A stretch of DNA of 64,000 bases from a virus, in IMG/VR virus record IMGVR_UViG_3300031992_004571. The stretch is one strand, 5' to 3'. Shown here piece by piece: positions 13,136-64,000 of this stretch (the stretch's first letter is position 1; each line of letters starts with the position of its first letter). A model generated the notes under the pieces. That model did not search any database, was not told the DNA's origin, and was given only the letters and a program-made list of their open reading frames with translations. The translations under genes and the position numbers were made by a program.

Positions 13136-13470
13136 AGAAACTGTTTTTACGCCGCAAAAGCCGTCTTGAAAAATTTTATCTCGTATATTAACATTTTCAC
13201 GACCCGCAAAGTCGTAAAACGCTTCATATAAGACTTTTACAGAGATTTTCCTGTTTTACACACTCGAAAACAGGACATGAGATAACATAGAAAAAGACAC
13301 AGTTCAGCCGTCCCGTAAAGCAACATCTTTACAGGACTAAACCAACGCACATATATTATAAAATAAGGTACGCGCGTATAAGAACACAACAACTTCACAT
13401 CCATTGTAGCCGTCCGTGTTCTCCTTTTTTATCGAGTACGTCCAGACTCCCGGACTATACCATCATCGTA
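13136..13470. promoter_or_regulatory. Intergenic control region upstream of the tra operon containing a perfect 8-bp-stem hairpin and two CCGCAAA(A)G motifs
   Basis: Hairpin cctgttttacacactcgaaaacagg at 13250-13274. Motifs tacgccgcaaaagccgtc (~13150) and gacccgcaaagtcgtaaaacg (~13201). No ORFs. Confidence 0.35.
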
Positions 13471-13471
13471 T

Positions 13472-13665
13472 TTGCCATTTTCCTTGCAAAGGTAGGGAGG
13501 CCCGTAGCCATGCCAAGTACCAGTCGCACACTCCCTATTTCAGAAAAATTTGGTAAAGCCCCAGGGCATTTTCTTTTGGCACAAGACACAAAACAAAATC
13601 AAAATTTTACCGAAATTCCTTGGCGAAGGCCACTCTTTAGCCTCTCTCAAAAAACGGCAAGTAAA
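13472..13665 (+). repeat. R1 conserved noncoding module, copy A (5'-truncated), upstream of dnaN
   Basis: Matches the core ttccttgcaaaggtagggagg(c/t)cgtagccatgccaagtaccagtcgcacactccctatttcagaaaaattt... of copies B, C and D with a few substitutions. Confidence 0.8.
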
Positions 13666-13772
13666 AAGGCATACGGATGACGGATATACTCGATGTTCAA
13701 AAAAAAGATCTCACGGACACAATGAAAAGTGAATAAAATAAAAGGCACGGAATCTGGAAACCCGATATTCCT

Positions 13773-13819
13773 GAACGCAATAAACGCAAAGAACGCAATA
13801 AACGCAAAGAACGCAATAA
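13773..13819. repeat. Tandem 9-bp iteron-like repeat (gaacgcaat/aaacgcaaa, about 5 units) ~50 bp upstream of dnaN
   Basis: Direct reading: gaacgcaataaacgcaaagaacgcaataaacgcaaagaacgcaataa. Confidence 0.85.
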
Positions 13820-13862
13820 CAAACATAATTTTTCATTAGAGGTTGCGCACGACACGGAATAA

Positions 13863-15005
13863 GTGCATACAACTATGACATTTACAGTTTCAAACAAGAC
13901 CCTCGGTGACGCTCTGAACCTTCTCATTAAGGTGGTAAGTTCAAAGAACGTACTCCCCATCCTCGACAACTTCATCTTCTCGGTGAAGGGTGAAGAACTG
14001 ACACTGACAGCAGCAGACACAGAGAACATGATGACTGCCCGCATCAGCCTCACGGATGCCAGTGGAGAGGGTGACTTCGCCGTCAACGCCAAGAGCATGA
14101 TGGATGCAGTGAAGAATATCGCTGACATCCCCCTGACCTTCACCTTTGAAGAGGACAACAACAGCGTGAAGGTGGCATACCAGAATGGCATGTTTACCCT
14201 GCCGACGGATAACACCAACGAGTTTCCGAATATCGGTGACATCAAGGCAGATGCTCTGACCTTCGACATCCCAGAGAATATCCTACAGGAGAATATAGCA
14301 CGTACCGTTTTCGCAACGGCACAAGACGAACTGAGACCCGTGATGAACGGCATCTTCTTCGACCTCACAGCAGAGAGTCTGAACATCGTAGCATCAGACG
14401 GCCATCAACTGGTACGTAACAAGATACTCAACATCAAGGGTGAGGACACGAACATTGGTTCCTTCATCCTGCCGAAGAAACCGGCCCATATCCTCAAGAA
14501 CACACTCCGTAAGACGGACGGCACCGTCAGCATTAAAGCCGACGACCAGAGGGTAGAGGTGGTGACAGAGACATTCACACTCAACTGCCGACTCATTGAG
14601 GGACGCTACCCAAACTATAATAGCGTCATCCCCAAGAGTAACCCGAACATCCTCATAGCAGACAGAATGAGCCTGATCGGTGCGCTGAAGCGTATCAACC
14701 CCTTCGCCAACACAAGCAGCTGCCTCGTGAGGGTACACGTAGAGCCTGGCACCCTGCAACTCGAAGCCGAGGATTACGACTTCTCGAAGATGGCAACGGA
14801 ACGGATGGCATGTGAGTATGAGGGTGCTACCTTCACTATCGGTTTCAAAGGATCTTCATTCATAGAGATTCTTGACAACATCAAGAGCGCAGAGATACAG
14901 ATGCAACTGGCAGACCCCAGCCGCGCAGCTCTCATCCTTCCTGCAGAGCAGACGGAAGAGCAGGAGATACTGATGCTCCAGATGCCGATGCTTATCAACG
15001 ACTGA
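13863..15005 (+). CDS. dnaN: DNA polymerase III beta sliding clamp (DnaN) homolog
   Basis: 380 aa. The MTFTVSNKTLGDALNLL start resembles DnaN MKFTV... The three-domain length matches. Probable true ATG at 13875. Confidence 0.7.
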   Translation: MHTTMTFTVSNKTLGDALNLLIKVVSSKNVLPILDNFIFSVKGEELTLTAADTENMMTARISLTDASGEGDFAVNAKSMMDAVKNIADIPLTFTFEEDNNSVKVAYQNGMFTLPTDNTNEFPNIGDIKADALTFDIPENILQENIARTVFATAQDELRPVMNGIFFDLTAESLNIVASDGHQLVRNKILNIKGEDTNIGSFILPKKPAHILKNTLRKTDGTVSIKADDQRVEVVTETFTLNCRLIEGRYPNYNSVIPKSNPNILIADRMSLIGALKRINPFANTSSCLVRVHVEPGTLQLEAEDYDFSKMATERMACEYEGATFTIGFKGSSFIEILDNIKSAEIQMQLADPSRAALILPAEQTEEQEILMLQMPMLIND

Positions 15006-15075
15006 TAATGTACTCCAGTGTACCAGAGTGTACTTCACTGAACTACACTGAATTTTCTTTTGTTCATACGATCCG

Positions 15076-15103
15076 AAAGTCCTGCCTGTGAAGGTGGGAC
15101 TTT
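15076..15103 (+). terminator. Weak hairpin downstream of dnaN (7-bp stem, no clear U-tract)
   Basis: aaagtcc-tgcctgtgaaggtg-ggacttt. Confidence 0.2.
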
Positions 15104-15185
15104 CCCATGATAACAATTAACATCATTTTAACAATTTCCGTTCCAAAAATGGCAATTTCTGTGCTATTTACGGCAAGAAACGGTC

Positions 15186-15250
15186 TATTTCTGGAAATAA
15201 ATGTACCATTCTTGGAATTATTCTTGGAAATGTTGGAAATCTTGGAAATT
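15186..15250. repeat. Cluster of five TGGAA(A/T)T repeats, partly palindromic (atttctggaaat)
   Basis: atttctggaaataaatgtaccattcttggaattattcttggaaatgttggaaatcttggaaattt. Confidence 0.8.
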
Positions 15251-15299
15251 TCCTCGCGGCGGGATGCTCCCTACAGTCGCATCCCCGGCCAAACCGTTC

Positions 15300-16264
15300 A
15301 GCTTTGACCGTAACAAGGTAGCCGGTGGCTGACTCTCTTCAAACGCATCCGCTATCCGTGCTGAAAAACTATTATCCGTTTCCGTTATCCGTACCCTTAC
15401 GGACTATCCGTGGTGATAATCCGTGCCTGGGCCACTACGTGGAAAGGTAATCCAGAAGCATGTCCGTGTCACTCTAAGGCAATCCGTACTGCCGCTATTA
15501 GTCCCACTCTGGGCAGCATGGCATACCAATGTCGAACTCATTCAGAGGCGAACAATGTTCTGCTTCACCAGTATCGACGTTGGTGTGCTACATGCTTTGG
15601 TCGCCGGACATGATGGCAACGGTACGGATCTGTATCGCCACACAGACGAATGACAACAGGGGCGATGGCGTGCCTCGCGGACAGAACACCCGCAGGAAGG
15701 CGACTTAACGGACGGCGTGATGCTAAGATTTGTGCCAGAGAGGTGCTGCACTATGTCGATGGGTGCAACCAGTTACCACCTATCGCCATTTCCCGACGGC
15801 ATACTGCTGTCAGAAACCCCTTGCACGTCACCGCCGCAAATCCACATCCCTGCACGTTCCTATCACTTTCCTCCAGGTGTCCATGCCATGAGTCACTGAT
15901 GCCACCACACCCCTAACGTCATTCCCGCATAGTACGGGAACACAAGGCACCACATACTATGCCGCTTCCTCCGAGACGGTTTTCAACTAACTTCGTTAAA
16001 CACTTTTCTACCTTTGTACTTACATTTCCATCATTCAATTCAAGAAACACCAATAACAGCCCCATCACCATTCGTCCATCTGATAAGACCTTATTGTTCT
16101 CCCTGTTAGTGCAAGCATTAACCTGGAGTACACCCGGACACATCATCTGGAAGTCGGGCGATAACAAAACTTCCGTCGGGAACAGAAGCATAGTTATCGT
16201 GCCGATGGCACAAGCCCGTCTGGCGAATGGATCTTTGGACTGTATTAAATATTCAAATCAGGGT
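15300..16264. other. GC-rich (~52%) ~1 kb segment with no ORF over 90 aa. Either a decayed gene or a structured ncRNA.
   Basis: Six-frame track shows only short overlapping ORFs. Composition differs from the flanks. Confidence 0.4.
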
Positions 16265-16550
16265 GCTTCGCAATACCATTCCAATCCTATTTCCTTAATC
16301 CTACGCCCACACCAAAGAGTATGTTTCATCCTGGCACAGAACCTTCTCATACTCAGCAGCAGAGCCGCAGGGTAGGATAAGGCACTGTTTACAGGAACAT
16401 GGGCGATGACAGACGCTTTCAATTCCTTAGACAAACCACTGGCAATCTCCGACAAGGCTCCGAAGCATCAGCAGTTTGTCTCTTCCTTGAAAACGACACT
16501 CATCCTAATGCCCATGTGGTGAAACATCACTCTTTCCCAACCCCCAAAAA
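16265..16550 (+). repeat. R2 conserved noncoding module, copy 1
   Basis: About 286 bp, colinear with 51575-51860. Conserved core gtttcatcctg.cacagaaccttctcatactcagcagcagagccgcagggtaggataaggcactgtttacaggaacatggg.gatgacag with a variable middle. Confidence 0.8.
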
Positions 16551-16584
16551 TCCGAACTTCCAGATAATTTTATACCTCCATTGT

Positions 16585-16615
16585 ACCAAATACCGCCTAT
16601 TTGGTACTTTTTAAT
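16585..16615 (+). terminator. Rho-independent terminator-like hairpin following R2 copy 1
   Basis: taccaaata-ccgcc-tatttggta followed by ctttttaatt. Confidence 0.5.
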
Positions 16616-16790
16616 TATTTCATAGAATAAACAAAAAAACGCATTTTTCCACATCGATGCGTTAATAATCGTTTTTTCTCCACGGAGTAGTAAAAACTCA
16701 ATGATAAATGGTGGAACAAAAAATGCAAACTTGAACAAAACATGAAGGTCTCATCAATGTCAGGTTATGTGGGTGTTTTTCACCCTAAAC

Positions 16791-17180
16791 GGTTCATTCC
16801 GCTTACGCGACGCCGTTTTCCTTGCAAAGGTAGGGAGGCTCGTAGCCATGCCAAGTACCAGTCGCACACTCCCTATTTCAGAAAAATTTTGTAAAGCCAG
16901 GGCATTTTCTTTTGGCACAAGGCACAAAACAAAATCAAAATTTTATCCGAAATTCCTTGGCGAAGGCTACTCTTTAGCCTCTCTCTTTTAATGGCAAGAA
17001 AAAGGCTATAAGCGAAACGAAGTCGATGACGACTAAAAAACATTAAACATAACTGCTGACTTGATGAGAGAATCAAGATAAGAAAAAGGCAAAGCTCACT
17101 CAGCCGATAACTCTCAAACAGCAGCACACAACAACAAACAAACACCGAAGGCGACGGAATAGAAAAAGCCAACAAACAGT
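16791..17180 (+). repeat. R1 conserved noncoding module, copy B (core plus 3' extension ending at the ATG of the next gene)
   Basis: Core is identical to copy D over ~165 bp apart from one substitution (ctcttta vs ctcctta). Extension gctgacttgatgagagaatcaag...agctcactcagccgataactc...caccgaaggcgacggaata is shared with D and C. Confidence 0.85.
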
Positions 17181-17435
17181 ATGAACGTAAATATTAAGTA
17201 CATCTTCGAGTGCAAGGACGGTTTCAAGTTCGAGCGTGAGACTCCAGAAGAGATTATCCGTATCATGCAGGAGAACTACGATGCGCTGAAGAAGATAGCA
17301 ACAGGCAACGGAGATTTCTGTAACTACTTCATTGATGCTTCCAACGAGTATTTCCCCAAGGGTACAATATGCACCAGCATAGACGGTACTTATAGAGTCT
17401 ATACATTGAGAACGGAGATAACTCAAATAAAGTAA
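17181..17435 (+). CDS. Hypothetical small protein (84 aa), first gene after R1-B
   Basis: ORF immediately 3' of R1. No recognisable motif. Confidence 0.45.
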   Translation: MNVNIKYIFECKDGFKFERETPEEIIRIMQENYDALKKIATGNGDFCNYFIDASNEYFPKGTICTSIDGTYRVYTLRTEITQIK

Positions 17436-17456
17436 TATTGTAAGTAATATTGTAAT
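17432..17456. promoter_or_regulatory. TTGTAATATT direct-repeat motif (reverse orientation of ATTACAATATTACAA)
   Basis: gtaatattgtaagtaatattgtaat. Related sites at 689-703, 46877-46898 and 49136-49150. Confidence 0.4.
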
Positions 17457-17487
17457 AAAACAATAATAACATATAAACATAAGTATT

Positions 17488-17880
17488 ATGGGTAATATCA
17501 CAATCATCCCGAAGCATGTGGACTTCTCACAGAAGATGAAGGAACTCCACCTGGCAATGTGTAAAGAGATTGCCTTTGTTATGGCAGCGACAGGAACGAA
17601 AGAACTGGATCTGCTTGGTACTGATACATGTCACGTCACCATCAAGATGGAACATAAGTTCACTGGAGAGACGGTAGATATTGAGGTGAAAAATGTAATC
17701 CTCAAAAACGACAACTTTTCTGAGGTTAACTTCGGAGAGGTCTATGTCACCTCACCTGACTGGAATTTCTGCGAGGATGAAATCTGTATCAGTAAAAACC
17801 AATACGTCATCCCTTGCAGCATCGAGGAACTGTATGAGGCAGTCTTTGAAAAATGTGACACCAACAGGGAAAAAAAGTAA
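17488..17880 (+). CDS. Hypothetical protein (130 aa)
   Basis: ORF in a co-directional array. Confidence 0.45.
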   Translation: MGNITIIPKHVDFSQKMKELHLAMCKEIAFVMAATGTKELDLLGTDTCHVTIKMEHKFTGETVDIEVKNVILKNDNFSEVNFGEVYVTSPDWNFCEDEICISKNQYVIPCSIEELYEAVFEKCDTNREKK

Positions 17881-17928
17881 GAAGGTAACGGGAGGTCTAA
17901 CCAGCCTCCCACCAAATAAATAATTGTA

Positions 17929-18777
17929 ATGAATACCCAGACCGACAAAAACAGAAACTACAAGTACCAGGGCGATAACCCTATAGTAACAGGAGAAAAG
18001 GGAAAGTTCCGCTGTTACTATATCAATCACGATGACAAGGCCGTGAGCCGGGTACTCGAACTGGAACAACTGAACCATCCGATACTCACCGAAGCGGGAG
18101 TAAAGGCATGGATGGAGCGTGATATGGACTGTTACAACCAGAGGTATGGAATAATTTACATCCAACTGACTGATAAGATCTGCTACCGCCCGATAAGGAC
18201 TGTATGTGATGCAACAACACTGGATATCTTAGACGGCCAGACCGTTAAAGGATGGTATGACGGTTATGCCGAGGACTGTGAAAAGAACCTCAATAAGATG
18301 TTTACAATGATTGCCGCCATCCCCAAGGCACAAATGAAAGGTGAATACTATCCTAATAAGGCCGTCATCGATGCCTATCTGGCAGCGGGTATGATAAACG
18401 AGGCAGGGCAGCTCAGTGAACACCGTAATGCCATTATCGCACAGCGCGAAGCCGAGGAAAACCGCCGCCGCCAAGAGACAGAAGAGCGTGAACGTAAAGC
18501 CAAGGAGGAAGAGGCAGCGGAGATAGCACGGCAGATTGCTGAAGAAGAAGAGTCCCTGCGCACCAAAGGGCATATCACTGGATGGGGAGTAGTACAACTG
18601 TGTGACCGTGAAGGTATCAACATACACCTTCGCACACGTCACAATCTTCTGGAGGTAATAACCTATTTCGAGGGTGGAGCAGCACACTACAGATATTACG
18701 GCAAGAGAAAGCCAAATCTGGACGGTTGTTTCAACACCCTTCGGGAACTGAAAAACAAATTAGGAATAGCAGCGTGA
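17929..18777 (+). CDS. Hypothetical protein (282 aa) with a central E/R-rich coiled-coil
   Basis: Segment REAEENRRRQETEERERKAKEEEAAEIARQIAEEEE. Confidence 0.5.
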   Translation: MNTQTDKNRNYKYQGDNPIVTGEKGKFRCYYINHDDKAVSRVLELEQLNHPILTEAGVKAWMERDMDCYNQRYGIIYIQLTDKICYRPIRTVCDATTLDILDGQTVKGWYDGYAEDCEKNLNKMFTMIAAIPKAQMKGEYYPNKAVIDAYLAAGMINEAGQLSEHRNAIIAQREAEENRRRQETEERERKAKEEEAAEIARQIAEEEESLRTKGHITGWGVVQLCDREGINIHLRTRHNLLEVITYFEGGAAHYRYYGKRKPNLDGCFNTLRELKNKLGIAA

Positions 18778-18778
18778 T

Positions 18779-19027
18779 ATGGTTATCATCAACGGACATA
18801 CTTTCTACGAGGAACCTGGTTGTTGTGGCACATGCCCCTTCCTCATGACCGGCAACACCGACGTGCCAGGGATAGGGCATACCGCACAACGGGGTCTCTG
18901 TATCCAATGGAACGAGGAACACCATACTTGGGCGCATATCCCCAGACGGTGTGCCAAACTCTTCAAGAGAGCATTCCAACTTTATGACAACAGCGGACAA
19001 GAATTAGTAATAACCTCTAAAGAATAG
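18779..19027 (+). CDS. Hypothetical Cys/His-rich small protein (82 aa)
   Basis: Motif CCGTCPF...H...HH...C. Start overlaps the previous stop. Confidence 0.4.
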   Translation: MVIINGHTFYEEPGCCGTCPFLMTGNTDVPGIGHTAQRGLCIQWNEEHHTWAHIPRRCAKLFKRAFQLYDNSGQELVITSKE

Positions 19028-19032
19028 AAAAG

Positions 19033-19200
19033 ATGAAAATAAAGGTATTTTTGGCTATTACGATTTTCAATGGTAAAGCCGAAGCAAATCAGATTTCAGA
19101 GAAATACTTCAATGATTTCAACTGGAGATTGAAGATGCAGGAGAAAGCTAATGAAGGCGAGTATCAGATTTATTTTACTGAAACGGAAATAACTAAATAA
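19033..19200 (+). CDS. Small ORF (55 aa), not in track
   Basis: ATG at 19033 and TAA at 19198 fill the gap in the gene array. Protein MKIKVFLAITIFNGKAEANQ... Confidence 0.3.
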   Translation: MKIKVFLAITIFNGKAEANQISEKYFNDFNWRLKMQEKANEGEYQIYFTETEITK

Positions 19201-19208
19201 CAAAAGGT

Positions 19209-19532
19209 ATGAAAACAATTATCTGCAAGTTCAAGTCCGATGGTAAGGACATTAAAAAGACGGCTATCCTCGGTGACTGTCTTCTCTTCCTCTCGAAGTC
19301 TAAGAAGAACGAGGCTACAGACATCCTGCAGCCGGAAGAGTTAGATAACGAAAACGCATGGGCGATTTTCTTTGCAGTCACAGAAACACTCGGCTATGAA
19401 GTGCAATTCGAGTATGACCGCGAAGTAAACAGACAGACCTTCAAACCGATCAAGGCCATCACCTGGGACGGCTCAGAGCCGGACAAGGTGACTATAACGG
19501 ATGTTCAGAATGTTACAGTAACAGTCAAGTAA
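19209..19532 (+). CDS. Hypothetical protein (107 aa)
   Basis: ORF in the array. Confidence 0.45.
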   Translation: MKTIICKFKSDGKDIKKTAILGDCLLFLSKSKKNEATDILQPEELDNENAWAIFFAVTETLGYEVQFEYDREVNRQTFKPIKAITWDGSEPDKVTITDVQNVTVTVK

Positions 19533-19537
19533 AACCT

Positions 19538-20083
19538 ATGAGAACGAGCAAAGAAGAATGGGGGAGTTGGACTGACCGCTCCCTTTCATGGGACAGACAG
19601 AAGGAAATATCCCTTTCCTTCAAGGAGGGTACGACACCAGAACAGATGGTGATAGCCGCCATCGGGATAGCAAAGAGATATAACTGCAATATCCTAAAGC
19701 CTGTTGAATATACCTATGATGAGAGCAAGGCAGATCCTCACAAAATCGCCTTTACGGTGGAATGCCATAAGTTCACGTATAAATACTTCTATGAGGACGG
19801 CATCGGGCAACACCATAACAGCGAGACGGTGACGGAAAAGGATATCGCCAGATACAAGGAGCGTTTCGGTACCGACAAGTGCATCCACAGGGATTTCAAG
19901 AAGAAATTCTGGTACTCCAGTAACTGGAACGGTGAGACACGTGAGTTTCATTCGCTTAAGAAAGCCAAGGAGGCAGCAGCGAAAGAGATAGGGATGACAG
20001 TCTGGATCTACACCAACTTCCCATACGGCAGACCGTCAGAGATAGTATTTAAAGCCGAAGCATCAGGGATTACGCCTCCCTGA
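19538..20083 (+). CDS. Hypothetical protein (181 aa)
   Basis: Last ORF of array 1, convergent with the minus-strand block. Confidence 0.45.
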   Translation: MRTSKEEWGSWTDRSLSWDRQKEISLSFKEGTTPEQMVIAAIGIAKRYNCNILKPVEYTYDESKADPHKIAFTVECHKFTYKYFYEDGIGQHHNSETVTEKDIARYKERFGTDKCIHRDFKKKFWYSSNWNGETREFHSLKKAKEAAAKEIGMTVWIYTNFPYGRPSEIVFKAEASGITPP

Positions 20084-20383: not shown

Positions 20384-20816
20384 GCTCTTTCTCCTTTCCT
20401 GACTTATAGAAAAACTCCAGTTCCCCACCAGTGAGGAACCTGATAATATTCTGCAATGAATGGATATAGGCACATTCTATCCTGGTCCAACGCTTCTGGG
20501 TAAAGTCAGGCTGGAACTTGAATGTGCTATAGTGCTTCCTTTTGTCATACTTCCAATAGAGACGCATATCTCCGAAATAATATACCAGTTTCCATGCTCT
20601 TTCGTTAGACTCGATGAACCCTATATGACGAAGGATGTCACCAGTGATGGGCAATCCATTCACCTTATCATGCTTGGCACACAAGAGATTGTCATCCCAT
20701 AATACAGTAAGTGTGTCAGTATTTAACTTGACTACCTCACATGGCCCATATTCTATGCCGTCAACTTCGATAATAACCAGACTACCTAATGATAACTCTC
20801 GTATATTCATAATCAC
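20376..20816 (-). CDS. Hypothetical protein (146 aa)
   Basis: ORF with no recognisable motif. Confidence 0.45.
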   Translation of the reverse strand: MIMNIRELSLGSLVIIEVDGIEYGPCEVVKLNTDTLTVLWDDNLLCAKHDKVNGLPITGDILRHIGFIESNERAWKLVYYFGDMRLYWKYDKRKHYSTFKFQPDFTQKRWTRIECAYIHSLQNIIRFLTGGELEFFYKSGKEKEHE

Positions 20817-54461: not shown

Positions 54462-54466
54462 GACGG

Positions 54467-55681: not shown

Positions 55682-55711
55682 AATGTAAAAGTTTTATTTG
55701 TTATACATATA

Positions 55712-56729: not shown

Positions 56730-57281
56730 ATGAAAAAGTTATTGATTTCAATCGTAAGCGTGATGGTCGCCATGAGCACCTTCGCACAGAGTAAGAATTT
56801 TGAGCCTGAGTACATCGGTCAGGTCGTAGTGATTAACGCTGACAGCACGACAACGCTGCTCCAGAAGGAACAGGCTGCTATGAAAACCAGCTCGTCGAAG
56901 TTTGGATACATCCCCATCCCTGGCAGTGGCCTGCTCGATAAGAGTAAGGTGAACCTCACCGTAAAGGGTGCAGAGTCAAAGACAATACTTCCGGAGGGTC
57001 GCCTGATATTCATCATCAAGACGGGAGATAACAACAAGGATCCAAAAGATGTGTTCGGTATCTTCCAGTTCGAGGTGAAGAAGAACAAGCGTCAGTATCA
57101 GCTGGCAGAAGCCGGTGTGCTGAGTGGAGTGAAATCCACTATGACATTCAACACCGTTCCGTCAGAGGCAAAGAAGTATGGTGAGGATTGTTATCTGGTA
57201 GTAATTGAGAACGCAGAACCAGGTCAGTATGCTATCATTACAACGGATATATCACAGGTTTCTACCTTTGGTGTTAAATAA
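56730..57281 (+). CDS. Lipoprotein/secreted protein (183 aa)
   Basis: Signal peptide MKKLLISIVSVMVAMSTFAQS. Confidence 0.5.
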   Translation: MKKLLISIVSVMVAMSTFAQSKNFEPEYIGQVVVINADSTTTLLQKEQAAMKTSSSKFGYIPIPGSGLLDKSKVNLTVKGAESKTILPEGRLIFIIKTGDNNKDPKDVFGIFQFEVKKNKRQYQLAEAGVLSGVKSTMTFNTVPSEAKKYGEDCYLVVIENAEPGQYAIITTDISQVSTFGVK

Positions 57282-57348
57282 CTCTCTTTAATAATATAAT
57301 AAGGTACGCGAGAAATGAAAATTAGGTCGGATTAAAAACAATATAACT

Positions 57349-57513
57349 ATGGGACTCTTATTATTTGGGTTACTGTTAATGGCGGCTTTTGGAGGTGACT
57401 CCAGCGGTAACAAAAAACATAAAAAACAAAAGAAAACCTACCGCCGCAGGGTTAGGAGAAGTGACTATACTGACGGTCTGGCTTGGTTCCACGATCACGG
57501 TCAGAGAATCTGA
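57349..57513 (+). CDS. Small basic ORF (54 aa), not in track
   Basis: MGLLLFGLLLMAAFGG + K/R-rich segment. Confidence 0.25.
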   Translation: MGLLLFGLLLMAAFGGDSSGNKKHKKQKKTYRRRVRRSDYTDGLAWFHDHGQRI

Positions 57514-57800
57514 TGATGAAGTGCAGACTGAGTAAGTGTAATGCACAGTGTTGCTATAACCTCGCTTTTGAGAATGGTGAACTGGAGCGTTTTAAGGATA
57601 AGATAGTCAATCCTGTGATTGATATTGTCTGGTTTGGTGGTGTGCGTCTGACGATTACATCAACGAACATGGATAGTAATAAATGTCCCTTCTTGCGTCG
57701 AGACTTCAAGTGTAACATCTACGAGAACCGTCCTGATGTCTGCAGAAAATTCGGAGAGATAGATAAACTACCTTGCAAATTTATGAAAAATAAAAGATAA
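57513..57800 (+). CDS. YkgJ-like Cys-cluster (Zn/Fe-binding) small protein
   Basis: CNAQCC...CPFLRRDFKCNIYENRPDVCRKF. Confidence 0.45.
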   Translation: MMKCRLSKCNAQCCYNLAFENGELERFKDKIVNPVIDIVWFGGVRLTITSTNMDSNKCPFLRRDFKCNIYENRPDVCRKFGEIDKLPCKFMKNKR

Positions 57801-57820
57801 ACAGATAAAACTTGTAATGG

Positions 57821-58372
57821 ATGAGTGCGACAAATTCCCTTCATTACCAACTTTGCTGTGAAGGAGCAAAATGGCTTCGTAACAAGAAAAACCGTGAACG
57901 CTGGCGCGGACACTGGAAGTATGTTTGGGTGGAGCCTGGTCTTGTTGGCGAAAACCCGGATATCTGGGCTTTTAATGGTGATGACACTATCTGTATTGAG
58001 GTAAAAACCTCACATGCTGATTTTGTGGCAGACCAGAAAAAGTGGTGGCGCAGGGCTGAAAATGACTCAAAAGTGGGAATGTTTCGTTATTATCTCGCTC
58101 CAAAGGGTGTTATTAAACCTGAAGAACTTCCGGAAGGGTGGGGTTTGTTGGAATGGGACGGTACTATTATTCGGGGTCGATTCCATATTGAGAAAATTAC
58201 CAGTCCAATGCAGATCTTTCCACCGTCACAGGGCGACCTTCATATTATCGGTTCGCTGTTGAGACGTGAAGGGCTGAAAGAGGGAATTTATAACTACCGC
58301 GGCCAGGCTACAACAATCAAACCTAAAACAGTTAACGGTGTTATTGTTAAAACAAAATATAAAAGGGAATGA
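57821..58372 (+). CDS. Putative PD-(D/E)xK-fold nuclease-like protein
   Basis: ...ENPDIWAF...ICIEVKTSHADF fits a D-x(n)-E-x-K arrangement. Confidence 0.35.
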   Translation: MSATNSLHYQLCCEGAKWLRNKKNRERWRGHWKYVWVEPGLVGENPDIWAFNGDDTICIEVKTSHADFVADQKKWWRRAENDSKVGMFRYYLAPKGVIKPEELPEGWGLLEWDGTIIRGRFHIEKITSPMQIFPPSQGDLHIIGSLLRREGLKEGIYNYRGQATTIKPKTVNGVIVKTKYKRE

Positions 58373-58483
58373 TTATGGAAGAGAAAATGAGACAGTGTTT
58401 TCACTTGATACAGGAAATTATCAGTGATGATCCAGATAAGTTTAACAATATGTCTGTAGAAGATTTTACCTTCTATCTTCTCG

Positions 58484-58825
58484 ATGAAATTCAAAAATAA
58501 GAAGCTTATGACAGAACAGATGAAACAAGCCTTGGAAAAGGCAGTAGTAGAAGATACTGGTAAAAAGAAAGATTATCCTATCAGTACACAGGATGCTTGT
58601 ATGCATGGTGCCTTGATATTCTTGTCCCTTCTTTGGAATCCGGCAAGTAAAAAGCCAGATCCAGGGCGGGAACTGATAATATTGAGTTCTAAGGGGATTA
58701 AGATATATCCAAATCCGTCAAATACCAAGATGGCTTGGGAGTTCTTTGTAAGAATATCCCACGTGGAAAAATGGGCATATTCAGAGGATATTCTTCCAAT
58801 GCAGGAAACGTCTGAAAAAGAATAA
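58484..58825 (+). CDS. Hypothetical protein (113 aa; alternative Met at 58508)
   Basis: ORF with no recognisable motif. Confidence 0.4.
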   Translation: MKFKNKKLMTEQMKQALEKAVVEDTGKKKDYPISTQDACMHGALIFLSLLWNPASKKPDPGRELIILSSKGIKIYPNPSNTKMAWEFFVRISHVEKWAYSEDILPMQETSEKE

Positions 58826-58829
58826 CACT

Positions 58830-59213
58830 ATGGATTTCGGACAGCCTCATAAGAATACTGTCTATGCTGAAAATCTTGATTTTGAGCAGGAACTTGACAG
58901 GGAACTGGAGAATGAAACATCTTGGGAAAAACGGGAACATCAGCGTTTTGTAAACTCGTGCCGTAAAGCAAAATGTAATATCACAACGATAAAGAGGTGT
59001 GAGAAAGAAATAGATCGACAGACATCCTCAATCCGTAAGAATATAGCGACGCTCGAATCCCAAATCAAGAACCTGGAAATACAAATTAGATATCGGAGTA
59101 CAGTTAAGAAGCAGAAAGAACTTGAAAAGGCTAAGAAGGAACTTGCATCTAAAAAACAACTCCTTGATAAGACTATCACAAGCATAAGCAAAGAAATATT
59201 CGGAAATATTTAG
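58830..59213 (+). CDS. Coiled-coil protein (127 aa)
   Basis: Heptad-like K/E region. Confidence 0.4.
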   Translation: MDFGQPHKNTVYAENLDFEQELDRELENETSWEKREHQRFVNSCRKAKCNITTIKRCEKEIDRQTSSIRKNIATLESQIKNLEIQIRYRSTVKKQKELEKAKKELASKKQLLDKTITSISKEIFGNI

Positions 59214-59220
59214 AATAATT

Positions 59221-59445
59221 ATGACACCGGAAGAGTATATTGAAAAGCTGAAGGAGGCGCAGCGCACCCTTGACAGCGTGAAAGAAGATCTTGACCGTGC
59301 CATCGACAGGATGCAGCGACGGATAGAGACGGGATATGAGAGTATGGAACAGGACAGCCGTCTGGCAGCTCTGGCAGGCCGCGAATACATAAAGTTAGCG
59401 GACAATAAAATCTATGAAACAGCAACGGCTAAAATTGAATATTGA
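59221..59445 (+). CDS. Hypothetical small protein (74 aa)
   Basis: ORF with no recognisable motif. Confidence 0.35.
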   Translation: MTPEEYIEKLKEAQRTLDSVKEDLDRAIDRMQRRIETGYESMEQDSRLAALAGREYIKLADNKIYETATAKIEY

Positions 59446-59476
59446 AAAAGACATCTAACAAATGTAAAGTATAGGA

Positions 59477-59725
59477 GTGTTTATGGATTATTCATCAGTG
59501 AAGAAGATTCCCTTTAAGGGATATGCAAGGGCATACGAGACAACGGTTAAAAAGTTGGTCACCGATCCCGACACAGGAAAAGAGGTGGTCAAGGAAGAAA
59601 AAATTATCCAATTCGGCGAGTTCGTCGAGAATAAGAAAAAGCTTCCCAATTATCACGAATATGCTGTATCTTCATCTAAGCATATCGGTATCGTAAAAGT
59701 TATGATAGAACCCGACGAAGATTAA
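59477..59725 (+). CDS. Hypothetical small protein (82 aa)
   Basis: ORF with no recognisable motif. Confidence 0.35.
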   Translation: MFMDYSSVKKIPFKGYARAYETTVKKLVTDPDTGKEVVKEEKIIQFGEFVENKKKLPNYHEYAVSSSKHIGIVKVMIEPDED

Positions 59726-59728
59726 ATC

Positions 59729-60487
59729 ATGAAGAAAGAGAACGTTATACAAAAGATCCAGAAGTTGCTGAAGTTACAGTATGGTGCTGAGAGCATCGGC
59801 AGCACCGGCGAGGCATTTCAGGCCGCGAAGATGGTGCAGAAACTGCTGATGGAGTATAACCTTTCCATGAGTGATATCGACACCTCAGACGGACAGGACA
59901 CCATGAAGATGGATAAGTCCATCGATATGTCCTCCAGCAGTAAGTTCGGCAATCGCTGGAAATTCCAGTTATTAGGCGTGATAGCCATGAATAATCTGTG
60001 CCAGGCATACAAAAGGATGGACAATAAGATGTTCGTGGTAGGCACGGAGGGCAATGTGACCATCGTGAAAGAGTTCTACGACTATCTGGTGAAGGTGTTT
60101 GTCAGACTGGCTGAAGAACACTGGATTGAAAGTCTTAAAGAACTGGAGAAAGAATATGGTCCACGGCTTCAAACAGAAGAGACCGATAAGATGATGGAGA
60201 AAGTAAGAAGAAAATATATCCGTTCATACTTGGAGGGTGTTCCCTTCGGCCTGCAGGAGAACTACGACAGTCTGAAACCTACGTCTGCAGAGACGGCACT
60301 GGCGGTATGTCATAAAGAGGCCATTGAGGATTATATTAACGATAATTTCCAATGGTCGGAGAAAAAGACGCGCAAGCGTACCCGCCATGTGTACGGCGAC
60401 GCCTACGACTTAGGCCATGCTGACGGTAAGAGTGTGAGTCTGAATAGACAGATAACCCAGAAGGTAACGGAAGGGTCCTTGTTTTGA
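59729..60487 (+). CDS. DUF2786-like protein
   Basis: N-terminus VIQKIQKLLKLQYGAESIGSTGEAFQAAKMVQKLLMEYNL matches the DUF2786 signature (KIRKLLALAE...EAAL..AQ.LM.KYNI). Confidence 0.5.
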   Translation: MKKENVIQKIQKLLKLQYGAESIGSTGEAFQAAKMVQKLLMEYNLSMSDIDTSDGQDTMKMDKSIDMSSSSKFGNRWKFQLLGVIAMNNLCQAYKRMDNKMFVVGTEGNVTIVKEFYDYLVKVFVRLAEEHWIESLKELEKEYGPRLQTEETDKMMEKVRRKYIRSYLEGVPFGLQENYDSLKPTSAETALAVCHKEAIEDYINDNFQWSEKKTRKRTRHVYGDAYDLGHADGKSVSLNRQITQKVTEGSLF

Positions 60488-60505
60488 CAGAAATAAATAT
60501 ATATT

Positions 60506-61042
60506 ATGGCAAAGAAAGTAAAAGACGCTTATAGCGAGATCCTGAGACTGAAAAATGAGTTCTACCAGAAATGGCAGGAGGTTCCTCAGTATGATGAGAA
60601 CAGGGACGCATACAAGGCGAAGTACGAGGCTTTCGACAAAGCCCTGGAGCTGCTGACACCTTCCATCGTGGATCCTCAGCCGAAAGATTCTGGTAAACTT
60701 ACTCACTCGGTGACCAAGATGAGTGACCAAGATGAGACTGTGAGCGACGATTTGAGGAAGTTCGCTGAAGAATGGGATGAATCCCTATATCGATCAGATG
60801 CTGTTATTGCCGGTGCAAAATGGCATAAACAGCAGATGATAAAGTCTGCCAAGTTATCTGGCTGGGTTGCCAGGGATGAAAACGGCTCCCTTCATTTGTT
60901 TGAGGTAGAACCCAGCAGAATAATGCATCGGTGGTGGGATAGGGATTACCATAGCACCACTCTTGATAAAAAAGATTTCCCAGATTTGGAATGGGAAGAT
61001 GAACCTGTTTATGTTAAATTACCAATTATTGTGGAGGATTGA
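60506..61042 (+). CDS. Hypothetical protein (178 aa)
   Basis: ORF with no recognisable motif. Confidence 0.4.
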   Translation: MAKKVKDAYSEILRLKNEFYQKWQEVPQYDENRDAYKAKYEAFDKALELLTPSIVDPQPKDSGKLTHSVTKMSDQDETVSDDLRKFAEEWDESLYRSDAVIAGAKWHKQQMIKSAKLSGWVARDENGSLHLFEVEPSRIMHRWWDRDYHSTTLDKKDFPDLEWEDEPVYVKLPIIVED

Positions 61043-61058
61043 AAAGAAATATATAAAT

Positions 61059-61406
61059 ATGGATAAAATTATAACCAACATTACCATCGGAAACTGGTAT
61101 CTGGTAAGGGGTAAACCTACGAAGATAACTTCGGCAAATGTAATATGGGCGTTTCGGGATGGATGCTTCCCGTTGCCTTTAACTGATGATATTCTAAAGA
61201 AATTTGGTTTTAGTCGGGAAGGCGGTGCAAGTTATTGGCATGACGGTGAACACGACGCTTGCATCTTATACTGGAACAAAGATAAAACTGAGTTAATAGT
61301 CAGTAATAGTGAGGTGACTCCACAAATAAGACTCAATATCCGTTTCGTTCATCAACTACAGGATGCCATGAGATTGGTGGGGGTTAATAAAGAAATAGAA
61401 TTATAA
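61059..61406 (+). CDS. Hypothetical protein (115 aa), paralog of 53804-54226
   Basis: ATG at 61059. MDKIITNITIGNWYL... and IRFVHQLQDAMRLVGV. Confidence 0.45.
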   Translation: MDKIITNITIGNWYLVRGKPTKITSANVIWAFRDGCFPLPLTDDILKKFGFSREGGASYWHDGEHDACILYWNKDKTELIVSNSEVTPQIRLNIRFVHQLQDAMRLVGVNKEIEL

Positions 61407-61410
61407 TAAT

Positions 61411-61668
61411 ATGGCAAAGAAAGTTATATACCTTCCTAATAGTGAACAGGCAGCACAGTTAATGGAAAATGCCTGGCAAGATTTCGCCGTTCAGATGAAA
61501 GAGAACGGTATGAACTTTGATGGTACAAAGGTGGCAGGATTACTGAAGGATATATTTATGTCTGGGTATTCTTACGGTCATAATGACTGTCTTACAATCA
61601 TCCGCGACCAAATGGAGGTCGATGATCTTGCAAAATATGCAAATTTGCTTGGGCAAAGAGAATCTTAG
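61411..61668 (+). CDS. Hypothetical protein (85 aa)
   Basis: ORF with no recognisable motif. Confidence 0.4.
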   Translation: MAKKVIYLPNSEQAAQLMENAWQDFAVQMKENGMNFDGTKVAGLLKDIFMSGYSYGHNDCLTIIRDQMEVDDLAKYANLLGQRES

Positions 61669-61692
61669 AAAAAAGGAAATGGTGGTTAAGAT

Positions 61693-61935
61693 ATGAAATG
61701 TCCCGTATGTAATGGCATCGGTCAGGTGGATAACCCAAGATACTACCGACACTCTGCAAGTTGGTCCTGGGAGCATGATATCCCATCAAGGATAACATGC
61801 AGAAAGTGCGGAGGGATCGGTTATATCATCGGTAACATGGCTGACATAGTAGAACGCCTGAAATGTGCGGCAAACGGTGTCACCATTACAACAAGGGAGG
61901 CAAAACAGATGTATGAAGCAATAATAAAATATTAG
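61693..61935 (+). CDS. Zinc-ribbon small protein (80 aa)
   Basis: CPVCNG...CRKCGG. Confidence 0.4.
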   Translation: MKCPVCNGIGQVDNPRYYRHSASWSWEHDIPSRITCRKCGGIGYIIGNMADIVERLKCAANGVTITTREAKQMYEAIIKY

Positions 61936-61938
61936 AGT

Positions 61939-62094
61939 ATGGCAGTATATGAATTGATTCAATACGCCTGTGATAACTGCGGTAAGTTGTCAGCAGTGCA
62001 GGATCCAGATAAGGGCATTCCCAAAGGGTGGGTGTTCGGTGAGAACCACCGCATCTGCTATTGTCCTGAATGTGCAAAAAAGTTAGGAATTTGA
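61939..62094 (+). CDS. Zinc-ribbon small ORF (51 aa), not in track
   Basis: CDNCGK...CYCPEC. Confidence 0.3.
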   Translation: MAVYELIQYACDNCGKLSAVQDPDKGIPKGWVFGENHRICYCPECAKKLGI

Positions 62095-62192
62095 TATACA
62101 CCTTTACCGGTGGTCAAAAAGGTGGTCAAATGAGTGGTCAAAAGTGTATAAAAACGACGAATTTACGAAGTAGGATTTAAATATACAAAATT

Positions 62193-62549
62193 ATGGCAAA
62201 TAGAAGATTCAAGGTCAAGGTGACCGTAGAAGCGGATTTTGAGATTGTCGTTGATGATGAAATCTTCAATGAGAAACTGGCCGACGGCATTTCCGACGGT
62301 TTCCACCCGATTGATTACGATGAAGACAAACCAGCTATACAGGCTCTTGTAGAGGATGTTGCAGAGTTGTATCTACGTACCGATGGGGACGGTGATAAGA
62401 TGGAACCATACGGAGCTATCGCTGAAGAAGGTAATAAGTACCAGGAAGAAATGTCTCATCAAGAAAAATCACCGTACTGTGGAGGTGTTACCATTAAACG
62501 CATCGGTGAGGATTATGTTGAAGTTGAATCTGAAGAAATGAAGAATTAA
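62193..62549 (+). CDS. Strongly acidic small protein (118 aa, ~30% D/E), candidate DNA mimic
   Basis: Composition read directly from the sequence. Confidence 0.4.
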   Translation: MANRRFKVKVTVEADFEIVVDDEIFNEKLADGISDGFHPIDYDEDKPAIQALVEDVAELYLRTDGDGDKMEPYGAIAEEGNKYQEEMSHQEKSPYCGGVTIKRIGEDYVEVESEEMKN

Positions 62550-63263
62550 ATGATAACAACAGGTACGAGACATCTGAAGGATATTACCGATGATGAGTTG
62601 GCAACACTGGTTGAGTTGTCGGGAGAATGGGGTGTGAAGAAATTCTGGGGTGACATCAAAATCACAGAAATTGATCGCCTGATGTTCGACAATACTATTT
62701 GTATTGACTACGAGCAGGATCGTATCAGGGATGGCGAGAAAGCAACATCTACAATGTTTTTCAATTATAACGAACTATCCTATCATGTTGCCCATCACTA
62801 TCCCTATGAGCGTATGGGTGATTGTCATTCCGTCTGTGAGAGAACACAGATGTTTCTCTGGCTTTTGGAACAGGATTTCAACGTTCTTGAAATGCTAACA
62901 CACGCGCCTGTTGATCCAAAGGGTAGTATGTCATATTTTACCTGTGGATATGTTGTTGGTAATATACATACGGACTGGTTCGATTTTGAACACGCTAAAT
63001 ACTTTGGAGTTGAAAACAAGAAAGATGCTAAAGAATATCTTGAAAAGGAAAAATCTGAAGGTCGTCGGCATCGGCTGTATCGCCTAATAGATGACAATCT
63101 TCATGAAGAAAACAACAACTGGCGTAACAATGAAGGTATCGAGGAACTTGCAAAGTTCATCCGGGGACACCTGACAGAGATACCAGAGAATGCCCAGAAG
63201 GAGTTTGAACGTATCTATACTAAGACTACAGGCAAGAAAATGTACGGAGGATTTAAAGATTGA
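62550..63263 (+). CDS. Hypothetical protein (237 aa)
   Basis: ORF with no recognisable motif. Confidence 0.4.
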   Translation: MITTGTRHLKDITDDELATLVELSGEWGVKKFWGDIKITEIDRLMFDNTICIDYEQDRIRDGEKATSTMFFNYNELSYHVAHHYPYERMGDCHSVCERTQMFLWLLEQDFNVLEMLTHAPVDPKGSMSYFTCGYVVGNIHTDWFDFEHAKYFGVENKKDAKEYLEKEKSEGRRHRLYRLIDDNLHEENNNWRNNEGIEELAKFIRGHLTEIPENAQKEFERIYTKTTGKKMYGGFKD

Positions 63264-63266
63264 GTT

Positions 63267-63653
63267 ATGGCGAAAGTAGAAATATACAAAGGGTTTTGGA
63301 CAAGAGAACAGGTAGCCCACCAACAGGATAAGGTTTTCTTATTTGGTGATAACACCTATGACAGGACAAAAACCCACTATATCCCAAGTATGACTCAGGC
63401 AGTCATAAGGGGACTACCTAATGCTATCGGGATAGACACCAAGAAAAACAGGTGGAAATCAGCAGATTCTTATTTCAGTGACGAAGACTTTGAAATGTTC
63501 AAGGCTCAGGTAGATGCTGCCATTGCCCAAGCAAAAGCATCTGGTAAGATCATTGTCATTCCTGCTGACGGCATCGGTACTGGCAAGGCGGTGCTGCAGG
63601 AAAAAGCCCCTCGATGTTTCGAGTATTTACAGTCAGAATTACAAAAATTGTAA
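63267..63653 (+). CDS. Hypothetical protein (128 aa)
   Basis: ORF with no recognisable motif. Confidence 0.4.
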   Translation: MAKVEIYKGFWTREQVAHQQDKVFLFGDNTYDRTKTHYIPSMTQAVIRGLPNAIGIDTKKNRWKSADSYFSDEDFEMFKAQVDAAIAQAKASGKIIVIPADGIGTGKAVLQEKAPRCFEYLQSELQKL

Positions 63654-63664
63654 CATAGAGGATT

Positions 63665-64000
63665 ATGGCAACAAAAACAAATCCTGATAAGGAAATGTGG
63701 GAGAAAACCGGTTTTCCGAACTATCCTAAATATGAATATGTGCCGTTGCCTAAAGAGGTGGCACGTATGTTAAAACGTAAATATAAGGACTATGTACTGA
63801 TGTCCTACTATTGGACGGACGATAAAGGTGCAAAGGTGGCATTCCTTGAATATATTTCTTATGATGGTATGAACGTCCATCGCGGCCCTGGCTATTGCTG
63901 TAACCGCATCGATGACCCTGCTATGTGGAGTCTGGTGGCAAGGTCACTGGCAATGGATAATATACAACTTCAAACAAGAACCTTCAAGAAAGAATTATGA
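63665..64000 (+). CDS. Hypothetical protein (111 aa)
   Basis: ORF ending at the window edge. Confidence 0.35.
   Translation: MATKTNPDKEMWEKTGFPNYPKYEYVPLPKEVARMLKRKYKDYVLMSYYWTDDKGAKVAFLEYISYDGMNVHRGPGYCCNRIDDPAMWSLVARSLAMDNIQLQTRTFKKEL

Follow-up and report, generated by a model that had tools for sequence, protein, structure and literature searches.

A strand-specific hairpin family heading gene cassettes in a conjugative element of rumen Prevotella: candidate single-strand promoters in Bacteroidota

The 64,000-nucleotide IMG/VR virus record IMGVR_UViG_3300031992_004571 (the whole of this stretch is called the window below) is probably about 40% of a large, approximately 153 kb conjugative replicon of rumen Prevotella. 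Its positions 13136-64000 are the accessory and establishment half, a mosaic of three kinds of module, and contain a repeated element, R1, whose nearly invariant core of about 185-190 nt forms a long imperfect hairpin and is present in four direct copies. These four and a diverged fifth copy all lie on the plus strand and each is followed by plus-strand genes, among them those for a sliding clamp, a RadC-like protein and a single-stranded DNA-binding protein (SSB). It is proposed that the R1 hairpins are the Bacteroidota counterparts of the Frpo/ssi-type elements of conjugative plasmids, heading establishment cassettes and acting as a putative promoter or priming site on single-stranded DNA. 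We put the probability of this reading at roughly 45%.

The strand-specific repeats had been pointed out in an earlier, sequence-only reading of this DNA, and they hold up on closer inspection. R1A (13483-13666) is located 209 nt upstream of dnaN (13875-15005, plus strand), which encodes a beta sliding clamp with all three domains (PF00712/PF02767/PF02768, E-values 3e-27 to 2e-18). The R1B hairpin (16821-17005) continues into a conserved leader (together 16821-17180) which ends at the ATG at 17181, the first codon of cassette B, a set of seven tightly packed open reading frames (ORFs) of 55-282 residues that could be assigned to no family (17181-20083, plus strand). The R1C hairpin (47002-47188, with leader 47002-47337) and the R1D hairpin (52304-52488, with leader 52304-52660) are followed on the same strand by the seven ORFs of cassette C (47338-50688) and the five of cassette D (52661-54226), respectively. 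Cassette C includes a PAPS-reductase/DndC-like gene (49196-50176; PAPS_reduct in Pfam, E 3e-7, PHROG 9e-30) and cassette D includes ssb (53197-53631), whose Pfam match is weak (9e-5) while the PHROG SSB match is strong (4e-15) and the C-terminus carries the canonical DDLPF. The diverged fifth copy, hairpin E (45850-46030), stands out in a sliding-window fold (-35.9 kcal/mol, z -4.2) and lies 33 nt upstream of the gene for a RadC-like JAB protein (46063-46758, plus strand; PF04002 E 4e-37, PF20582 E 8e-23). The identities given to the SSB, RadC and PAPS-reductase-like genes in the sequence-only reading are thereby confirmed. A covariance model scores R1A to R1D at 188, 186, 194 and 188 bits, and copies B, C and D share a further leader of about 170 nt up to the first ATG. 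Folded as single-stranded DNA, R1B reaches -34.0 kcal/mol (z -4.1) for the plus and -37.5 kcal/mol (z -5.1) for the minus strand, values that none of 200 shuffles equalled. The window has all five of its copies on a single strand, and the orientation relative to the leader is the same in all 18 independent assemblies (nine for R1C and nine for R1D), which were fetched via neighbouring proteins irrespective of how the hairpin lay. In Rfam the window gave no match at the gathering threshold, and 13.1-17.5 kb gave none even at E<=1.

Relatives of R1 were found with a single 24-base pattern built from two blocks at the base of the stem, which matched 11 genome contigs and 23 metagenome contigs (34 in total), one of the metagenome contigs (L053) being a chance match. 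By sequence the family divides into four or five types (W, P, R1, R2 and S), and all 26 distinct members fold as one long hairpin with energies of -25 to -38 kcal/mol. In the copy from the plasmid pE2-28 of Prevotella sp. E2-28 the stem base is identical to that of R1, and where one arm of the interior has changed the other arm has changed to match. Covariation was assessed on an alignment of 15 representatives, in which 94.3% of the cells are paired compared to 30-58% when the partners are slid by one to three columns. Changes on both sides, and hence compensatory, occur in 14 of 33 pairs (one to three when slid), the covariation score is 0.34 (0.04-0.08 when slid) and none of 500 shuffles reached the observed values. 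A covariance model made from this alignment also detects further diverged copies in two other elements, where they lie on the strand of the mob and type IV coupling protein (T4CP) genes. Judged by this pattern of substitution, the hairpin is a conserved and selected structure.

The best conserved part of the stem resembles a host promoter. The Bacteroides promoter consensus consists of a -33 TTTG and a -7 TAnnTTTG box, and the R1 stem fits it with TTG-N19/20-TAccTTTG on the minus-strand reading of the left arm, approximately 10 nt short of the stem base (in R1A, TTG-N19-TAccTTTG at 13487-13516). This motif is present in all 26 variants, a count in which the invariance of the -7 box across types is partly by construction since that box belonged to the search pattern, so that the -33 TTG and the spacing are the independent part. 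The whole 64 kb window, both strands counted, has just eight motifs of this kind, of which four are those of R1; the minus strand of hairpin E has TTG-N17-TAccTTaG. On the plus strand beside the leaders of copies A, B and C there is no such motif. Predicted folds place bulges of 2 nt and 5 nt at the -7 box. The stem carries host-type promoter boxes with imperfections at the proximal box, in a geometry worked out from the sequence. In the duplex state the motif points left, away from the cassettes, and in the folded minus strand it would point into them.

Gene content, the structure, covariation, strand specificity and fixed orientation of the hairpin and its adjacency to relaxases in relatives are observed, whereas we infer that the minus strand is the strand transferred during conjugation and that the hairpin has promoter activity as single-stranded DNA, and any anti-defence activity of the small ORFs is likewise an inference. 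On entry into the recipient the minus strand would fold, and pairing of the stem would restore a promoter of the sigma-A(Bfr) type (-33 TTG, -7 TAccTTTG, the -7 box flanked by bulges), the motif-bearing arm serving as the non-template strand and the other arm as the template. RNA polymerase would leave the base of the stem and continue rightward on the single-stranded template to give a plus-sense RNA of leader and cassette, the 5' ends of which are expected at the stem base, around GCAAGAAAAAGG. Transcription of this kind may also give a primer for synthesis of the complementary strand. SSB, the clamp, RadC and the products of the small ORFs would in this way be made before the DNA becomes double-stranded, and synthesis of the complement would reverse the direction of the motif and silence the cassettes. 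Beside these cassettes and a 22-kb minus-strand block, a parAB module and a small-ORF array with an ordinary promoter, all described below, form the remainder of the mosaic.

Single-strand promoters, zygotic induction and anti-defence islands have been studied almost wholly in Proteobacteria with some work in Firmicutes, and gene flow in the gut and rumen is dominated by Bacteroidales conjugative elements. In the searchable literature no publication was found that links single-strand promoters with Bacteroidota. R1 may comprise the first single-strand (zygotic) promoters recognised for this phylum, self-silencing in the duplex and perhaps priming as well, a claim that we hold a shade more tentatively than the counterpart relationship itself. 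If true, the principle of Frpo has arisen anew with another sigma-factor code, and the expression of SSB and clamp ahead of second-strand synthesis finds an explanation. The hairpin would then also be a searchable handle for early establishment and anti-defence cassettes in the mobile elements of gut and rumen Bacteroidales, and the small-protein cassettes that it marks would be prime candidates for new anti-restriction and anti-CRISPR functions. To our knowledge no such functions have been described in the organisms concerned.

A single-strand promoter of the Frpo type was reportedly described for F-like plasmids by Masai and Arai in 1997; priming and promoter functions are not exclusive, as Frpo does both. 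Promoters of this class (Frpo, ssi or ssp) occur in F-like and IncI plasmids (Samuel et al. 2024, PMC11541004; PMC13478746), and that of F sits upstream of ssb and psiB (PMC11541004). Like them, R1 is a long imperfect hairpin with promoter boxes in the stem and mismatches at the proximal box, it occurs in several copies per element, all on one strand and each upstream of a same-strand cassette including one with ssb, and it is associated with the relaxase-proximal beginning of arrays whose genes run toward the relaxase. Where F has ssb and psiB behind Frpo, the window has ssb and dnaN directly behind R1 hairpins. There is no evident sequence relationship between R1 and Frpo/ssi, as judged without a formal comparison, and with so different a promoter consensus none is to be expected: the boxes of R1 are the -33 TTG and -7 TAnnTTTG of Bacteroidetes and not TTGACA and TATAAT. 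R1 is also shorter (about 190 nt) and is followed by the conserved 170-nt leader, and its copies extend over 40 kb. The single-strand origins ssoA and ssoU of rolling-circle plasmids are similar in being strand- and orientation-specific hairpins of 150-200 nt which RNA polymerase recognises via promoter-like boxes in the stem, but these make only a short primer and have neither a conserved leader nor a coding cassette.

The position of the hairpins relative to relaxase genes bears on the polarity of transfer. Once each locus had been oriented by its hairpin, five independent contexts were seen to have the hairpin, one to four small ORFs and then a relaxase gene on the same strand within 1.7-4 kb. 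In two of these a Mob_Pre relaxase lies 1.7 kb (L037) and 2.1 kb (L045) from the hairpin; in the others the hairpin is followed by NikA and Relaxase (L041/L015), by Relaxase (L016) and by MobC and Relaxase (L042). Both pE2-28 and L024 have the order topoisomerase (minus), four small ORFs (plus) and MobV (plus), the ORFs of pE2-28 being preceded by a shorter R1-like element. None of the hairpin copies is directed away from a relaxase gene. Behind other copies the cassettes either converge on the end of a tra operon (pE2-28, L048) or diverge from its start (R1A, L073), and in multi-copy elements all copies lie on one strand, which is opposite to the tra coding strand. According to the classical rule the order is oriT (the origin of transfer), accessory gene and relaxase, with the relaxase entering last, a rule of thumb quoted by Samuel et al. 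(PMC11541004). Applied to the NikA/MobC-type arrangement, this rule implies that the hairpin cassettes would enter first and that the minus strand would be the one transferred, as the proposed model requires.

Several observations weigh against the proposed single-strand function. The prototype of the MOBV family, pMV158, is nicked upstream of mobM on the coding strand (PMC5863519). Were this to hold for the hairpin arrays linked to MobV (L037, L045, pE2-28), they would be the last to enter and on the wrong strand, so that only the PF03432/NikA/MobC-linked cases would conform to the classical geometry. No convincing nick motif was found: TAGTGTG, which is MOBV-like, is present upstream of mobV in pE2-28 and absent in L024, L037 and L045, and matches to the MOBP-like ATCCTG are at chance level. 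For the element itself neither a relaxase nor a T4CP or oriT turned up within the window or the approximately 30 kb of flanking sequence that could be reached (about -9 to +20 kb), in a search with Pfam, PHROGs and NCBIfam on all ORFs followed by a walk through identical contigs. The left flank reached in this way contains TraN, an M23 peptidase and a polyvalent protein of 6493 residues; the right flank contains small ORFs, NERD, topoisomerase III, GldK/L/M/N-like and Mfa fimbrial genes and a protein of 788 residues, after which three contigs end at an R2-like repeat. A search for T4CP homologues seeded from pE2-28 gave 120 matches, none of them on contigs of the present element, and the three matches that were looked up (L024-L026, L075) are other elements. 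Furthermore, the hairpin copies lie 13-57 kb apart instead of being clustered at one end. No member of the known anti-defence families (ArdA/B/C, KlcA, Psi/PsiB, Acr, SOS inhibitors) has a Pfam or PHROG match in the region, and the AlphaFold single-sequence model of a strongly acidic 118-residue protein encoded there has a predicted local distance difference test score of 38, which is too low for a fold search. The presence of the -7 box in the search pattern, noted above, and two properties of the stem and of copy D, taken up next, count on the same side.

These two properties belong to an alternative in which R1 is a structured 5' leader of the messenger RNA (a stabiliser, RNase III site or attenuator) that an upstream duplex promoter reads through, the minus-strand motif being incidental or serving leftward genes. 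This is unlikely, although it is the explanation that survives best next to the single-strand promoter. It is consistent with the fold of hairpin and leader as RNA (-84.5 kcal/mol, z -2.5), with the conservation between sequence types of the leader downstream of the hairpin, and with a greater number of G·U-compatible pairs on the plus strand, since the consensus stem has about 32 cells of G·T wobble in the plus reading against seven in the minus reading, an excess that mildly favours folding of the plus strand or of RNA. In addition, an ordinary plus-strand promoter motif is located 215 nt upstream of copy D (52058-52088), and the hairpin there could therefore be part of a transcribed leader. 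Copies A, B and C, however, lack an upstream promoter motif on the plus strand, and the minus-strand DNA fold is the more stable in 21 of the 26 variants, by a mean margin of 2.5 kcal/mol. An RNA leader, for which no Rfam match was obtained, also leaves unexplained why the best-conserved blocks make up a -33/-7 promoter on the opposite strand and why the hairpin recurs upstream of relaxases.

It is somewhat less probable still that R1 is a real leftward promoter acting in the duplex, with the palindrome controlling a divergent regulatory region by forming a cruciform or binding a protein. The motif does face the first tra gene in the window at 350 nt and that of L073 at 158 nt, as well as minus-strand genes at copy D (a gene of 91 codons, 51858-52133) and in L042 and L039 (genes for proteins of 525-530 residues). 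There is, on the other hand, no minus-strand gene to the left of copies B and C or of the copies in pE2-28, L041 and L045, and what stays constant is the leader and cassette on the right at a fixed distance. Covariation extends along the whole 190-nt stem, which would be superfluous for a simple promoter.

The possibility that the whole 51 kb is ordinary cargo or plasmid backbone, unrelated to transfer polarity and anti-defence, and R1 a selfish repeat similar to a miniature inverted-repeat transposable element or a recombination scar shared by related elements, appears improbable. The region does encode DnaN, a primase, ParAB and a recombinase and includes candidate iterons (15210-15630; 26680-27273), which suggests a backbone for replication and maintenance, R1 forms the joints between recombined cassettes in L052, L046, L036 and L073, and anti-defence homology was not found. 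Against this, R1 occurs only in the context of conjugative elements, always on one strand and with leader and cassette, its compensatory evolution argues for a function, and orphan methyltransferases, SSB and RadC are typical establishment genes. Least probable of all is that R1 represents an invertible, phase-variable promoter of the Bacteroidales kind, seen here in its OFF state, in which a flip between the 10-bp halves of the basal stem, perhaps by the tyrosine recombinase at 44230-45708, would bring the motif onto the plus strand ahead of the leader: the geometry fits exactly, with the -7 box just inside the left repeat, promoters with a TAnnTTTG box between inverted repeats and a tyrosine recombinase nearby are common in Bacteroidales, and the recombinase adjoins hairpin E and in L036 lies directly beside an R1 copy, but the inverted state is seen in none of the 18 independent assemblies (which show the majority orientation only and could miss a rare ON state), five window copies and two pE2-28 copies, a single orientation in 25 copies, and the segment is palindromic throughout with covarying internal helices that inversion does not need.

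For the region as a whole, the sequence-only reading had suggested the leading-region anti-defence island of a conjugative element. Part of this stands, namely the conjugative element, which is one of Bacteroidales, and the plus-strand cassettes with SSB, small ORFs and a strand-specific hairpin; a uniform island of 51 kb does not. The region is an accessory and maintenance mosaic and not one anti-defence island, because about half of it is a block co-oriented with the tra genes (primase, SPFH/flotillin, a radical-SAM protein, regulators), to which the parAB module is added. What lies outside the cassettes, the small ORFs and the methyltransferases most likely serves replication, partition, recombination and regulation. 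The picture of dozens of small ORFs on the same strand has to be abandoned, as the curated gene call has 41 genes on the plus and 41 on the minus strand, and the arrays are not headed by R1 throughout. Orphan methyltransferases, SSB, many small uncharacterised ORFs and hairpins ahead of arrays are shared with the leading-region islands of Samuel et al. (2024); the differences are that homologues of ArdA, ArdB, ArdC, Psi or Acr are absent here, that the methyltransferases are on the strand opposite to SSB, and that half of the region consists of the tra-co-oriented block together with partition and replication genes. Small ORFs of the kind that had been put forward as candidate anti-defence proteins are indeed present, whereas the screen of Pfam and PHROGs gave no anti-defence homology; those behind the hairpins are, we consider, reasonable candidates for such a role.

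All three methyltransferases of the sequence-only reading are real. The T1-type Dam (20813-21301; PF05869, E 8e-13) and the D12 Dam (30549-31367; PF02086, E 3e-24) are as described, and the Dcm is a C5 methyltransferase (PF00145, E 2e-27) whose ORF spans 32610-34415, the start given earlier at 34313 being an internal ATG of that ORF. They can also be called orphans, in that a PADLOC scan of 17.9-39 kb returned methyltransferase models only and no nuclease model within the limits of detection by hidden Markov models. All three have minus-strand genes, in contrast to SSB, RadC and the PAPS-reductase-like protein, whose genes are on the plus strand. In leading regions methyltransferases and SSBs are exclusively in the orientation of the transferred strand (Samuel et al. 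2024, PMC11541004), and this uniform orientation of methyltransferase, SSB and anti-defence genes is not found here. Since the methyltransferases and the SSB/hairpin cassettes are on opposite strands, at most one of the two groups could be expressed from the entering strand. Lying opposite to the hairpin cassettes, the three methyltransferases cannot be in the same early set. More likely they protect the element by methylating it beforehand in the donor, or act late, once the second strand has been made; in the proposed model the whole minus-strand block cannot be read from the entering strand that serves the cassettes.

This block (20063-42566, minus strand) comprises 35 genes in 22.5 kb that are co-oriented with the tra operon and have a larger median size. 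In addition to the methyltransferases it encodes, by Pfam, a radical SAM protein (21421-22311), DUF6633 (25304-26320), Lin1244_N (27139-27645) and DUF1896 (27666-28232) proteins, a regulator combining helix-turn-helix, sigma70_r4 and the C-terminal domain of the RNA polymerase alpha subunit (31370-32305) and an SPFH/flotillin protein (35810-37273), as well as a primase identified by PHROG (40133-41251). Three genes of the block (37777-38355, 39094-40125 and 41253-41534) are homologous to the three that directly precede the tra operon in pE2-28, which gives the block the appearance of a tra-proximal region that has expanded. Direct repeats of the GTTTCTTCCGAA type are located at 26680-26756 and 27176-27273, in or beside the Lin1244_N (DnaD-like) gene, and could be iterons of a replication origin. 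To the right of the block, three plus-strand genes with weak Pfam or NCBIfam matches encode a helix-turn-helix regulator (42752-43174), a phosphoribosyltransferase-like protein (43234-43869) and the tyrosine recombinase.

The partition and regulatory module (54273-56134, minus strand) consists of a small ORF (54273-54461), a 122-residue protein in the position of ParB (54467-54835), ParA (54926-55681; AAA_31/CbiA E 3e-51, PHROG ParA 9e-60) and an acidic receiver-like protein of 140 residues (55712-56134). It is followed by the longest array of small ORFs, 18 on the plus strand (56730-64000), which runs on for about 4.8 kb past the end of the window and is preceded not by R1 but by an ordinary promoter-like motif, TTG-N20-TAatTTTG, at 56509-56539. 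Members of this array include a CxxCxxCC protein (57513-57800), a DUF2786/DUF7168 protein (59729-60487), the acidic 118-residue protein (62193-62549) and a DUF7831 protein (63267-63653). The DUF2786 and acidic proteins had been singled out beforehand, rightly so: the former matches DUF2786 and DUF7168 in Pfam and the latter has a pI of 4.26, a net charge of -18 and 26% D/E. A coiled-coil ORF of 74 codons in the array (59221-59445) recurs with 83-88% nucleotide identity among the first genes behind the relaxase-adjacent hairpins of L016 and L042, which places it high among the candidates for an early role.

The identity of the element rests on the MPF_B tra operon at 1-13135 (minus strand), which includes TraE/TraF (DUF4134/DUF4133), TraG/VirB4 (8409-11393), TraM (724-1962) and the start of TraN. 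On the identical contig L007 the Pfam labels are DUF4134, DUF4133, P-loop_TraG, DUF5045, Transposon_TraM and DUF4138 (TraN). The operon is syntenic with that of pE2-28 (NZ_CP091789.1, 205 kb), in which TraK, TraM and TraN are annotated, at a protein identity of 63-94%, and by Pfam and this synteny together the CTnDOT-like MPF_B set of TraE, TraF, TraG(VirB4), TraJ, TraK, TraM and TraN is present. Also common to the two elements are ParA, topoisomerase III (74%), the three genes that precede tra and an R1 hairpin, which in pE2-28 belongs to type P and heads three small ORFs. They differ in the distance between tra and the topoisomerase, about 12 kb in pE2-28 and about 54 kb here, and in what adjoins the topoisomerase, which is MobV and T4CP in pE2-28 and the GldK/L/M/N-like and Mfa fimbrial cluster here. 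Related sequences all derive from metagenome-assembled genomes or metagenomes of rumen and gut Prevotella and Bacteroidales, and 42-64 kb of the window had zero nucleotide matches in the plasmid collection. An identical SSB is encoded on five contigs of 152.6-156.0 kb from different samples, and this similarity in size is a hint that the element is a circular replicon of about 153 kb and not an integrative and conjugative element. Contigs with this SSB include ENA ERZ1024287 scaffold_117, ERZ27279997 k141_543017, ERZ1667810 scaffold_122, ERZ28613628 scaffold_245 and ERZ28633997 scaffold_91. A search for tRNA genes found none. The reading of the OmpA/PorK/L/M genes right of the topoisomerase as the end of an integrated element, or as chromosome, was rejected as this cluster follows a 99%-identical topoisomerase in differently composed contigs. 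A prophage was likewise rejected, structural and lysis genes being absent (PHROGs on the 39-64 kb half, Pfam on the whole region), and scans of viral contigs for the hairpin and for the 788-residue protein gave no match.

Relatives of the element differ from it in the order of the cassettes. In the variants L052, L046, L036 and L073 the cassettes are joined differently at R1 (compared with 16821, 47002 and 52304 of the window), and the hairpins therefore also serve as recombination joints at which cassettes are shuffled. In L052 and L046 the 17181-20083 cassette is found behind a different copy (R1D), in L036 an R1 hairpin comes straight after the tyrosine recombinase (97%), and in one variant of the element the R1C cassette adjoins the start of the tra operon.

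Two further repeats or non-coding stretches were noted. R2 is a palindromic element of about 80 nt (13165-13241) which folds weakly and separates the tra operon from R1A/dnaN, in the intergenic region from which the two diverge. Further copies are found at L007 17045-17121 (92%), L002 9345-9427, L001 16935-17011, L027 9875-9913 and at the end of L031, with a half-site at 53093-53131 of the window, and the copy after the 788-residue gene is that at which the three flanking contigs break. R2 is situated in divergent intergenic regions (tra/dnaN, topoisomerase/86-residue ORF, M23 peptidase/DUF4099) and is probably a shared operator or bidirectional promoter or control site; it was rejected as oriT because it is multi-copy and found in several divergent promoter regions. 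The second stretch, 15006-16800, is 1.8 kb without a convincing ORF between the dnaN terminator (15075-15104) and R1B. It contains 9-nt tandem TTGGAAAT(N) repeats at 15210-15254, at least seven (T)ATCCGT repeats at 15350-15630 and a core of about 170 nt (15478-15650) bounded by a 17-nt inverted repeat. The core is 88-89% conserved in L042 and L045 and 72% conserved in L041, and in all three it has a relaxase gene within a few kb. It had no match in Rfam or the plasmid database, and although one frame is open in three loci the substitutions are without codon periodicity. It could represent iterons, a centromere, an accessory site of oriT or a non-coding RNA.

Some features of the flanks and of the wider gene content deserve mention. 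The 6493-residue polyvalent protein (helicase, LPD23, nucleotidyltransferase, MutS_I and more domains) is encoded just past the distal end of tra, left of the window (L007 19770-21239 and beyond), and related loci encode ArdC (L001, L075) and an ART-PolyVal protein (L049); recognisable anti-restriction-type functions of the element family are thus sited outside the window. Right of the window, GldK/GldL/GldM/GldN-like and DUF3575/DUF5119/Mfa-like fimbrial genes follow topoisomerase III (L002 9548-13888; L031 6742-19797; L027 1-9737). The GldL copies are 73-98% identical between contigs compared to 99% for the topoisomerase, and a module resembling the type IX secretion system, with fimbrial genes, appears to travel with the conjugative element. 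Lastly, a set of genes reminiscent of nucleotide metabolism is scattered over the region (29163-30531; 21421-22311; 43234-43869; 49196-50176). Two of its members look by eye like a nucleoside deoxyribosyltransferase and a TrpF-like TIM barrel, and the radical-SAM, phosphoribosyltransferase-like and PAPS-reductase/DndC-like proteins are of the same type. The family matches are not strong, and these genes could belong to a DNA-modification pathway.

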